From assembly GCF_016026235.1 (NCBI RefSeq), contig NZ_CP065613.1: a stretch of DNA of 64,000 nucleotides. One strand, written 5' to 3'. The first letter of the stretch is position 1; each line of letters starts with the position of its first letter. The translations under genes and the position numbers were made by a program. The notes under the pieces were generated by a model, which was given only the letters and a program-made list of their open reading frames with translations, was not told the origin of the DNA and ran no database searches. Origin of the DNA: Escherichia coli. Lineage in GTDB: Bacteria; Pseudomonadota; Gammaproteobacteria; Enterobacterales; Enterobacteriaceae. Below, piece after piece: positions 53,232-60,457 of this stretch.

Positions 53232-56027
53232 TTATTTTGGCAATAATACTCCGGTATAAGTATTTACCGGATGAGAAAGATATTGTTTAACGGCAGTGTT
53301 AACATTCTCTACCGTCATTTGTTTCAACAATTGCTCCTGCTCAGTCCATGCTACAGGATCGTCATATTGAATAAGACTATTTACAATGGTGTTCGCTAAT
53401 TGTTGAACGCTACGCTGTTGGATATCGAGGCTGCGCTGAACGTTTTGCTGGTATTCATTCAGTTCTTGCTCACTGATCCCTTTAGCCAGACGCTTAACCA
53501 TCACTTCATTCGCTAACGTTAACAGTTCATCATGTCGTTCTGGTTGACAAGTAAAAGCCAGCAAATGACTGATATCTTTGGCCTGAGGATCAACCGAGAG
53601 GCGAGAAGAAACGCTGTATGCCCCAGATGCCTGTTCACGAATATTAACGCGTAGATCTTTTGCCAGTGCGACGTTAAAAGCATCGAGCGCCATACGCGTC
53701 GCCAGATTAACAGGTGTCCGGGAATCATAACGCTTCCACTGTGAAACCTGTGCCACAGGTTCATTTTGTTCTTTTACAGTAACCGATGCGTTGTCCGTCG
53801 CGCGAGTTAATGGTTTACCTGCGGCTAATGGCGAATCAGAGTGTTTGATTGATCCTAAGTAACGCGTAATTAACGCCACGAGTTTGTCTTCTGCGACATT
53901 ACCGACAATGACAAACGTGATATCCGCTGGAGATGAAAACAACTGGCGATCGGCAGCCAGCGCATCCGCGGCAGTAAACTGTGCAATCTGATTTTCTTGC
54001 AGTAATTTCGTGCGGTCATCAGCATAGCGCGTCTCATACATCTGCTGGGCGAATTTCTCCGCTGGACGCTGGTCGAGCGTTTTCAACGCCTGAATTTGAG
54101 CATTTTGTAGCGATGCCCAAATATTGTCGTTAATCGTGCTGTGGGTGATTCGCTGGTTAATCAACTGGAAACCAGGTTCAGGGTTATTAGTCCGCGCGCT
54201 AACGGAGAGCAACGTATTCATGCCACTGACTTTACTGCTCATGGTTACCGAGTTTTCCGCACTCCAGCGTTTCAGGCTGGAAGAGGAGAGTTCGCCAACG
54301 CCGCTTCCGCTAACTGCTTTATTTGCCAGCGCGATAAGTGATTTTTGCTGCGCAGGGAAACTTAAATCGCCTTTATTCGATATGGCAATAATTTGTAGCT
54401 TTTGCTCTTCACCCGCGGATTTTGCCAGAATAACCCTGGCACCATTGGAAAGTGTTAATGATGTCAGATTCTCAGCCAGCGTTTCTTTGCTGCTAATTTC
54501 CGCCTGTGGGTCAGCGTCTACTGTTAACGATAAATTTCTGCCTGGGAAGATGTAAGCCGCCAGCTTTTTGTTGGCGTACTCTTTTTCCAGCGCCAGGATA
54601 GCCGCAGGAGACAATGCTTTATTGGCGGCAACCTCATTGTTTACCATTTGCTCCCAAAATGCGTCCTGGTTCTTTCTTAACTGCTGCCATTTTTCCGTCA
54701 GACTTTGCACGGTAATTTGCTGCCACAGACGTTTCGAAAGTTGATATGTCTCTTCCGGCGACAAGAACGGCGTATTATTTAATGAGCTTGATGCCAGGCG
54801 ACTGGTCAGCATACGTAAATCACGTTCAGCTTGCTGATCAACCGCATTATTCAGCCAGGTGAGGCGGGTAGATTTGACATCATCGAGTTCTTCAGCAGAA
54901 AAACCATGCTGATCAATGGTTGCCAACTCTGCCATTAATGCATTCGCAGCATCCTGCATATTATCGTCTCGTGCATTTACACGGAAAAACAGCGACTGAT
55001 AATCGGGTGCAATTCTAACGCTGCGCGCAGTGCCGCCAGAAATAGTCTTCAACTCGCCCGACTGTATGCGTTCCTGCAGACGTTGATTGAACAGCTGAAC
55101 TAACATGCTCCATTCAGCTTGTTCGATAAAGCTTTGCTCATCGTTCACTTGTACCATTGGCAGGCGATAATAGAGTGCGATGCCGTTCACCCGGTTTTCT
55201 TTATCATTAATGATATTAAAGCGCAGGTGATTTTCGGCTTTTGTCGGCCAGACGCGATTTTCAGCTGCTTTGTTAGCCGGAAGCTTACTTAAATTATCCT
55301 TTATCAGCGCCAGCGCTTCTTTACTGTCGATATCGCCGACCACGATAAAGGTCATATTATTTGGTTGATACCAGCGTTGATAAAATTGGCGCAATTGTGC
55401 CGGTGTGACCGTGGCGACAGTATCCATCAGGCCGATAGGTTCACGGTCTAAATTACGGGTATTAGCCAGCAGGAAAGGGCGGCGCGCCTGAGAGGTGCGC
55501 CATTTCGCATCCTGATGGGCACGCCATTCCTCAGTAATTACGCCACGTTCAGCGTCTACTTCGAGTTTTTCAAAGGTTGCGGCATTACTCCATTCACTGA
55601 AGATTGCCATCACTTGTTGCAGATTTTGTTTCTGCGTAGTTGGTAAACTCACCTGATACACCGTTTCGTCATAGCTGGTATAGGCATTAACATCGCGACC
55701 AAAACGCAGGCCCATTGACTCAAATGTTTCGATGACTTTATTACCCGGCCATGTTTTTGTGCCGTTAAACATCATATGTTCTACAAAATGAGCCACGCCG
55801 CGCTCATTGTCTTCTTCCTGCAATGAACCGGTATGAATTTGCAGCCATAAATTTACCTGATCCTTTGGATGAGCATGCGGATAAATCATATATCGCAAGC
55901 CATTGTCCAGTTGCCCGGTAATTAACTTTTCATCCTGCGGTAAGGCGGCGGCAATCAGCCGCCCGGGGAGCAACAGAGTTGCCACTAACGTCAGTAAGAA
56001 ACAGAGGTTTCTCATAATTATCTCCAT
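53232..56027 (-). CDS. pqqL: Periplasmic M16-family zinc peptidase
   Basis: 931-aa ORF with signal peptide and inverzincin-type HFVEHMMF (HxxEH) motif. Confidence 0.9.
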   Translation of the reverse strand: MEIIMRNLCFLLTLVATLLLPGRLIAAALPQDEKLITGQLDNGLRYMIYPHAHPKDQVNLWLQIHTGSLQEEDNERGVAHFVEHMMFNGTKTWPGNKVIETFESMGLRFGRDVNAYTSYDETVYQVSLPTTQKQNLQQVMAIFSEWSNAATFEKLEVDAERGVITEEWRAHQDAKWRTSQARRPFLLANTRNLDREPIGLMDTVATVTPAQLRQFYQRWYQPNNMTFIVVGDIDSKEALALIKDNLSKLPANKAAENRVWPTKAENHLRFNIINDKENRVNGIALYYRLPMVQVNDEQSFIEQAEWSMLVQLFNQRLQERIQSGELKTISGGTARSVRIAPDYQSLFFRVNARDDNMQDAANALMAELATIDQHGFSAEELDDVKSTRLTWLNNAVDQQAERDLRMLTSRLASSSLNNTPFLSPEETYQLSKRLWQQITVQSLTEKWQQLRKNQDAFWEQMVNNEVAANKALSPAAILALEKEYANKKLAAYIFPGRNLSLTVDADPQAEISSKETLAENLTSLTLSNGARVILAKSAGEEQKLQIIAISNKGDLSFPAQQKSLIALANKAVSGSGVGELSSSSLKRWSAENSVTMSSKVSGMNTLLSVSARTNNPEPGFQLINQRITHSTINDNIWASLQNAQIQALKTLDQRPAEKFAQQMYETRYADDRTKLLQENQIAQFTAADALAADRQLFSSPADITFVIVGNVAEDKLVALITRYLGSIKHSDSPLAAGKPLTRATDNASVTVKEQNEPVAQVSQWKRYDSRTPVNLATRMALDAFNVALAKDLRVNIREQASGAYSVSSRLSVDPQAKDISHLLAFTCQPERHDELLTLANEVMVKRLAKGISEQELNEYQQNVQRSLDIQQRSVQQLANTIVNSLIQYDDPVAWTEQEQLLKQMTVENVNTAVKQYLSHPVNTYTGVLLPK

Positions 56028-56071
56028 GCGAAAACCGGGCGAATTTACCCGGTTAAGTAAAATCCGAACTA

Positions 56072-60191: not shown

Positions 60192-60217
60192 AATGATTAT
60201 CTATGGCAATGATTTAC
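60192..60217. promoter_or_regulatory. Fur-box-like AT-rich motif upstream of yddA
   Basis: CAATGATTATCTATGGCAATGATTTAC contains AATGAT / TATC hexamers resembling the Fur consensus GATAATGATAATCATTATC; sits 25-50 bp upstream of the yddA ATG. Not scored with a matrix. Confidence 0.4.
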
Positions 60218-60457
60218 TGATGAAATTTATTTAAGTATCATTTAACAATATGAAATATATAGAAATTTTTAATTTTCAGTGGTTATGGTTATGCTATTGA
60301 TAATCAAGGGTATTACTAATGCCCTGACGCATACCACGTATGCCAGGATTTTCGCAAGGGAAGATGATGATGACGAAACACCCAACAGGAATTTATGTCG
60401 GGTGTCTTGTTAAGGCCATAAGAAGGAGGCTAAGACTGGAGCAAAGAGGGAGCGTTA

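Follow-up and report, generated by a model that had tools for sequence, protein, structure and literature searches.

What does the repressor Fur act on at the yddA-yddB-pqqL locus of Escherichia coli, from which operator, and what do the three gene products do together? We analysed a stretch of 64,000 nucleotides of contig NZ_CP065613.1 (assembly GCF_016026235.1), called the window below, in which an earlier reading made from the letters alone (the original prediction) had described a periplasmic M16 protease, a TonB-dependent receptor and an ATP-binding cassette (ABC) exporter behind a Fur-like motif. The locus is the E. coli yddA-yddB-pqqL operon, a Fur-repressed homologue of the ferredoxin-uptake (Fus) system of Pectobacterium, and it has been published already. 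We hold with high confidence that it is a Fur-repressed, Fus-like import operon, that its operator is at 60150-60174, and that the motif flagged in the original prediction (60192-60217) is not that operator. Published work already covers the genes, their Fur regulation and co-transcription, the iron dependence of PqqL production and the import hypothesis. What is added here is the placement of the operator at the start codon, the case for YddA as a probable importer, and two leads, namely a possible later start codon (Met10) and a conserved block upstream.

The original prediction had three co-oriented genes with gaps of about 40 bp, and minus-strand open reading frames (ORFs) begin and end exactly where it put them. 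They are transcribed in the order yddA (58482-60167), yddB (56072-58444) and pqqL (53232-56027), with gaps of 37 bp between yddA and yddB and 44 bp between yddB and pqqL. Its description of an M16 protease, a TonB-dependent receptor and an ABC gene agrees with Pfam, with PDB matches and with RefSeq, which labels the three ORFs pqqL, yddB and yddA. PqqL (931 aa) is a periplasmic FusC-like M16 zinc protease with Peptidase_M16 and M16_C domains, the sequence HFVEH at residues 80-84 (an HxxEH motif) and an N-terminal signal sequence, seen as a hydrophobic, signal-like N-terminus; the construct in the PDB begins at residue 27 and the periplasmic location has been shown (PMC6793856). Its PDB matches are 6ofs and 6oft (E=0) and then 6b03, 6b05 and 6brs ('putative zinc protease', 8e-59 to 3e-57); PMC12731061 identifies 6B05 as FusC. 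YddB (790 aa) is a FusA-like TonB-dependent outer-membrane transporter with a receptor plug domain and matches 6ofr, which is YddB itself, with E=0 and FusA (4zgv) with 6e-81. YddA, 561 aa as annotated, is a fused type IV ABC transporter with the Pfam domains ABC_membrane_2 (1e-43), SbmA_BacA (8e-34) and ABC_tran (9e-19); it carries the Walker A motif GYSGAGKT at 400, the signature LSSGE at 487 and the Walker B motif IFLDE at 508. A FusA-clade transporter and an adjacent FusC-like single-chain M16 protease are therefore both present, and the operon also holds a fused ABC gene, whose homology to FusD is as stated in PMC5095587. Of 5,426 complete E. coli genomes, 5,411 match the 7.5-kb stretch, and there its genes carry the labels pqqL, yddB and yddA; gadB/gadC flank it on one side and ydeM/ydeN on the other.

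The strongest Fur site in the window lies over the start of yddA. The matrix was built from 24 sites of K-12 MG1655 (16 footprinted or gel-shifted, 8 predicted in known Fur-regulated promoters), with coordinates from Chen et al. 2007 (PMC2189734) and sequences from NC_000913.3, aligned in the 9-1-9 single-dimer frame. Published positions were recovered, mostly at zero offset, and the rebuilt and published scores are 27.5 and 27.4 bits for gpmA, 23.2 and 23.1 for entC, 23.3 and 23.1 for fecI, and 22.3 and 22.3 for fhuF. Two further matrices used the 16 experimental sites only and the classical 19-bp frame. Scored leave-one-out, the training sites span 8.5-27.1 bits with a median near 20. The sequence at 60150-60168 (AATGGGAATGGTTATCATT) scores 19.1 bits, ranks first among 63,982 window positions and comes first on all three matrices; only 0.3% of dinucleotide-preserving shuffles of 60130-60300 reach this value. 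A second site at 60156-60174, 6 bp away, scores 8.1 bits, and the two overlapping 19-bp sites make up the main operator, 60150-60174. The score at 60150-60168 falls within the range of proven sites and the position is at the 5' end of the operon, as in members of the Fur regulon; the operator overlaps the annotated yddA ATG (60167-60165). It equals both the 25-bp cluster of PMC2189734 and the box GGGAATGGTTATCATTAG of PMC3855560. The genome scan in PMC2189734 gave yddA 19.6 bits and two sites in a 25-bp cluster at +8, located between promoter and translational start, and listed only three such strong clusters, at fepD-entS, yddA and fecA.

Binding in vivo coincides with this operator. The two MG1655 Fur regions reported from chromatin immunoprecipitation with exonuclease digestion (ChIP-exo) are 1577347-1577374 and 1577233-1577267 in NC_000913.2 numbering (Gao et al. 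2023, Dataset 2, PMC10164565); the window is collinear with K-12 here, and they map to 60148-60175 and 60034-60068. The W3110 peak at 1581039-1581051 (PMC10164565) maps to 60150-60162, and the bound K-12 sequence at the operator is identical to that of the window. Immunoprecipitation followed by sequencing also places Fur upstream of the operon (PMC4676285). The second MG1655 region partly overlaps a weak Fur-like site within yddA (60054-60072, about +104) that scores 6.4 bits here and in K-12 and 10.1-12.7 bits in other Escherichia through a single base change. In the MG1655 sheet of Dataset 2 the gene labels run one row off the peak coordinates from about P37 to P47; the label acnA, for instance, stands against the tonB peak, and the yddA pair falls on a blank row and on the uxaB row. 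Reuse of that table by gene name would give wrong coordinates.

Expression follows Fur. Deletion of fur raises yddA, yddB and pqqL in eight of nine strains, with log2 fold changes for yddA of 1.9-6.9 (3.06 in MG1655, 6.93 in W3110; PMC10164565). A macroarray places the operon in the Fur regulon and reverse-transcription PCR shows co-transcription; in CFT073 quantitative PCR finds it derepressed in a fur mutant, and urine induces it more than 30-fold (PMC3855560). The operon belongs to the Fur-2 iModulon and is induced by serum, according to the literature, and PqqL protein rises with bipyridine and in urine (PMC6793856). The Fur control suggested in the original prediction thus stands in that its overall span contains a strong Fur box and the regulation is published, and fails in that the motif it singled out is not the operator. 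Between yddB and pqqL, at 56033-56054, lies a GC-rich hairpin of 7 bp (AACCGGG...CCCGGTT) with TTTTCGC after it, and the basal level of pqqL exceeds those of yddA and yddB in published RNA sequencing. Together these hint that transcription partly terminates there, that the transcript is stabilised or that an internal promoter is present.

How the operator sits relative to the promoter can be predicted. A putative sigma-70 promoter is found on the minus strand at 60180-60209, with a -35 hexamer TTGCCA (60209-60204), an 18-nt spacer and an extended -10 element TGgCACAAT (60188-60180). By consensus scan it has 9 of 12 matches plus the TG, and both hexamers are invariant in six Escherichia sequences. 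Transcription would be predicted to start near 60171-60173, with the operator then spanning roughly +1 to +22, including the annotated ATG. Because it lies just downstream of the promoter-like site, the operator would cover both the point where transcription is predicted to begin and the start codon as annotated.

The annotated start codon is itself in some doubt. Substitution pattern and the start of an orthologue point to an alternative yddA start, the ATG of Met10 at 60140-60138 on the minus strand. Of the differences between two of the Escherichia loci (L021 and L023), codons 10-561 hold 144 synonymous and 23 nonsynonymous ones, whereas in codons 1-9 all 4 are nonsynonymous and none is synonymous (Fisher's exact test, about 3e-4 by hand calculation). 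Two of the changes in codons 1-9 sit inside the Fur box, whose score is retained. K-12 has LR where FC stands here at YddA residues 8-9, and residues 3-4 change from TI to IV in Escherichia sp. E1V33. The orthologue in an Enterobacteriaceae metagenome bin (L025), 52% identical, starts where Met10 aligns. No obvious Shine-Dalgarno sequence precedes either ATG. Codons 1-9 may be constrained by the operator, or the true start of yddA may be the ATG at 60140-60138, nine codons later.

Conservation upstream extends beyond the promoter. The conserved block at 60175-60259 (85 bp) comprises the promoter plus about 50 bp of further conservation. The sequence at 60147-60259 is identical to K-12, while the next 198 bp hold 16 differences (about 8%); likewise every one of the 4,613 matching E. 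coli records has 60140-60260 at 95% identity or more, and the distal intergenic part, 60261-60457, stands at 90-95% identity in 4,125 of 4,288. Upstream of the -35 hexamer, 60210-60259 is invariant with respect to K-12 and largely so across Escherichia, in long invariant runs, and its conservation is not accounted for by the Fur box or the core promoter. It is a tentative proposal, and one we consider less likely than not, that codons 1-9 are an operator in a 5' untranslated region of about 30 nt ahead of a Met10 start and that 60210-60259 is at the same time a site for a second regulator. Such a regulator, if real, could explain induction in urine without an effect of iron as well as the Fur-independent dependence on oxygen. 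Direct repeats of ArcA type (TGTTA with 11-bp spacing), picked out by eye in the conserved block, were considered and set aside: TGTTAAATGATACTTA matches at 11 of 16 positions and the bases between the repeats vary by species. We found no ArcA immunoprecipitation report for yddA in the literature. Scored with the Fur matrix, the yddA-ydeM intergenic region holds no other site above 7.1 bits in the window or in K-12.

Comparison across genomes extends the Fur box to other species. A reference-genome scan with YddA, whose peptide patterns were E. coli-specific, returned only 8 loci, a small comparative set; among them are four from Escherichia, one from the Enterobacteriaceae metagenome bin and one from Neisseria wadsworthii. 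The start-codon Fur box scores 18.8-19.1 bits in all four Escherichia loci and is the top match of each 10-14 kb locus. The Enterobacteriaceae bin has the same yddA-yddB-pqqL order (identities of 52% for YddA, 60% for YddB and 46% for PqqL) and a Fur box of 22.9 plus 14.5 bits, 46-52 nt upstream of its yddA start. In N. wadsworthii a TonB-dependent transporter is followed by a YddA-like ABC gene, with a 20.8-bit Fur box about 70 bp upstream of the transporter. That transporter was also considered as a relative of YddB, which a BLASTP E of 0.3 ruled out. Since strong boxes occur in both the Enterobacteriaceae bin and Neisseria, Fur control of such clusters is conserved beyond E. coli. YddA-type ABC proteins recur beside uptake receptors.

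The operon is not intact everywhere. The yddA promoter block is present in only 4,609 of the 5,426 complete E. coli genomes, set against the 5,411 in which some part of the locus is matched. An IS4-family insertion splits yddA (H7) and a deletion fuses the intergenic region to pqqL (H30); in FDAARGOS_943 pqqL is frameshifted and ydeN has an internal stop, and yddA has an internal stop in Escherichia sp. MOD1-EC7003. In a minority of lineages, then, the operon appears to be undergoing decay.

With iron present, Fe2+-Fur binds the 25-bp operator at 60150-60174, as published K-12 ChIP-exo data show, and we propose that bound Fur blocks initiation or promoter escape. On loss of Fur all three co-transcribed genes rise, as published for the mutants. 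Homology and structure suggest that YddB brings a polypeptide, probably iron-bearing, into the periplasm, where PqqL, whose location and protease identity are published, would cleave it. The released product would most likely be imported across the inner membrane by YddA, judging by its characterised relatives. The protease-associated import put forward in the original prediction is likewise an idea already in the literature, and the published work on the locus comprises PMC6793856, PMC3855560, PMC2189734, PMC4676285 and PMC10164565.

For YddA this departs from the original prediction, whose term 'ABC exporter' is doubtful as a statement of direction: it describes the type IV fold, and the closest characterised relatives import. 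A 2026 study of SbmA places E. coli YddA in a YddA/BclA clade, the proposed source of the SbmA/BacA peptide importers, and gives Rv1819c, described as a cobalamin transporter, as its closest structural homologue. YddA of B. cepacia is required for the action of the lasso peptide ubonodin, which is consistent with inward transport. Grinter 2016 (PMC5095587) describes yddA as homologous to FusD, which is proposed to act as the importer at the inner membrane in the Fus system. Because Rv1819c, B. cepacia YddA and FusD all point to import, the exporter label would reflect fold; YddA is probably an importer, a role for which its relatives argue better than for export.

Three other explanations have to be weighed against this scheme, and the first concerns the operator. 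The flagged motif at 60192-60217 overlaps both the -35 hexamer of the putative promoter and its spacer, and it might be the Fur operator itself or at least a functional auxiliary site from which Fur occludes the -35 region. Ten of its bases in a row, AATGATTATC, fit the Fur consensus, and the motif is invariant within E. coli. Its best 19-mer, 60192-60210 (AATGATTATCTATGGCAAT), ranks 22nd-39th among the roughly 64,000 window positions. The centre of the motif is 42 bp (7 x 6) from that of the main site and Fur is known to spread from strong sites; the similarly weak 6.4-bit site inside yddA does overlap a ChIP-exo peak. However, the 19-mer scores 6.7 bits (5.8-6.8 over the three matrices), mismatches the consensus at 7 of 19 positions and falls below every leave-one-out training site, the minimum being 8.5 bits. 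At least 6.7 bits is reached by 36% of 5,000 dinucleotide-preserving shuffles of the AT-rich 60168-60300. This is a weak, background-level match, the outcome that the original prediction had itself named as telling against its motif. The strong box lies some 25-40 bp downstream, the published ChIP-exo peaks of MG1655 and W3110 leave 60192-60217 uncovered, and the published scan gives only the 25-bp two-site cluster at +8 (PMC2189734). In two sister Escherichia lineages (L022 and L023) the Fur-critical GATAAT half has become GACAAT or GTCAAT and the site scores below 5 bits, whereas the overlapping -35 and the extended -10 are invariant. As the GATAAT half decays while the promoter hexamers do not, conservation at 60192-60217 is better explained by the promoter. 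We consider a Fur role for the flagged motif very unlikely and retain 60150-60174 as the operator.

The other two alternatives concern function. YddA might be a true exporter that secretes a factor or clears the products of PqqL cleavage; its type IV 'exporter' fold and many exporter matches in the PDB, including ABCB1 and BSEP, would fit. Those classical exporters, however, match mostly through the nucleotide-binding domain (query about 355-555), whereas the best, near-full-length match is the importer Rv1819c (6tqe, 4e-67, residues 35-552), with ABCD-family proteins next. Import is the direction in characterised members of the YddA/BclA clade and the one proposed for FusD, and the YddA-like gene of Neisseria follows a Fur-boxed TonB-dependent uptake receptor; export by YddA is improbable on these grounds. 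Somewhat less remote, though still unlikely in our view, is an operon whose main business is not iron from protein at all, serving instead the import of peptides or other hydrophilic nutrients, or acting as an entry route for peptide antibiotics, with Fur as one input among several. Several observations that weigh against our scheme favour it. Deletion of yddB or pqqL gives no growth defect in iron-limited LB, even without other iron transporters (PMC6793856). In CFT073 dipyridyl alone does not induce the operon, although deletion of fur does (PMC3855560); since urine gives more than 30-fold induction where dipyridyl has no effect, other signals contribute. Oxygen-dependent differences in expression remain in strains lacking Fur, according to the literature. 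The cargo of YddA's relatives is cobalamin, bleomycin or peptides, not iron, and the 85 bp of conserved upstream sequence goes beyond what the Fur box and promoter explain. Against this stand the strong Fur boxes conserved across three lineages on orthologous or analogous clusters, the operon's place in the Fur-2 iModulon with consistent derepression in fur mutants, the rise of PqqL protein with bipyridine, and the use of ferredoxin as iron source by Fus, the closest characterised system.

Further points count against a Fur-repressed, Fus-like import operon as we describe it. RyhB raises the RNA levels of the operon, according to the literature. No dedicated TonB homologue (FusB) was found by Pfam among the window ORFs in or beside the operon. 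The original prediction called the substrate unresolved, and this still holds: a December 2025 review of M16 proteases gives that of PqqL as 'n/a'. The 2026 SbmA study lists the function of E. coli YddA as unknown, and the inward direction proposed here is drawn from its relatives. The promoter and the transcription start are likewise predictions from the DNA. With these reservations, a Fur-repressed import operon related to Fus remains the explanation we prefer.

Other Fur-like matches in the window fare less well than the yddA operator. The second-best (60586-60604, AATAAGAAACAGTCTCATT, 15.0 bits) lies within the coding sequence of ydeM; it was rejected as an operator, as it has no MG1655 ChIP-exo peak and its score decays to 8.5 bits in Escherichia sp. 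MOD1-EC7003 (L022). Four moderate matches of 11.5-13.6 bits lie at 20142-20160, 32351-32375, 32782-32800 and 34482-34500. Three of them map to K-12, at the narU start, the yddJ pseudogene and the yddL-yddG intergenic region, none with an MG1655 ChIP-exo peak; 20142-20160 had no match in the K-12 stretch searched. The window is longer than K-12 by about 7.5 kb, somewhere between 34.5 kb and 59.7 kb. At about 60370-60492 the plus strand carries an ORF of 40 codons, annotated yneP (b4747) or 'hypothetical protein', which runs antisense across the 3' end of ydeM, in the divergent part of the yddA-ydeM intergenic region.

The operon matters as a fitness factor of uropathogenic E. coli in systemic infection, and as the representative in E. 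coli of a proposed family that takes up entire proteins across the outer membrane. The stretch analysed here is the same locus as yddA-yddB-pqqL of K-12 and CFT073 (b1496-b1494; PMC6793856, PMC3855560), with the same gene order, Fur box sequence and neighbours. Beyond the identical 60147-60259, its coding sequence shares about 97-99% identity with that of K-12, and the differences, such as those at YddA residues 8-9, are allelic only. In FDAARGOS_943, at 99.9% the nearest complete genome, the annotation marks pqqL as frameshifted; here the gene is intact. Compared with the canonical E. coli Fur operators of fhuA, entC, fecI and sodA, the yddA operator has a score within their range and the same pair of sites spaced by 6 bp, but it lies over the annotated start codon, downstream of the -10 element, and not over the -35 and -10 elements. 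YddA shares with Rv1819c, BclA and B. cepacia YddA an ABC_membrane_2/SbmA_BacA domain fused to a nucleotide-binding domain; of these, only the E. coli gene shares its operon with genes for a TonB-dependent transporter and a protease. The closest parallel is the FusA/FusB/FusC/FusD cluster of Pectobacterium, which is iron-regulated and has FusA-like, FusC-like and ABC components as here. YddA is likened to FusD by published description (PMC5095587) and not by sequence comparison. Gene order in Pectobacterium differs from yddA-yddB-pqqL, and FusB has no counterpart in the E. coli operon. Pectobacterium takes iron from ferredoxin through Fus, whereas the E. coli operon shows no growth phenotype under iron limitation (PMC6793856).

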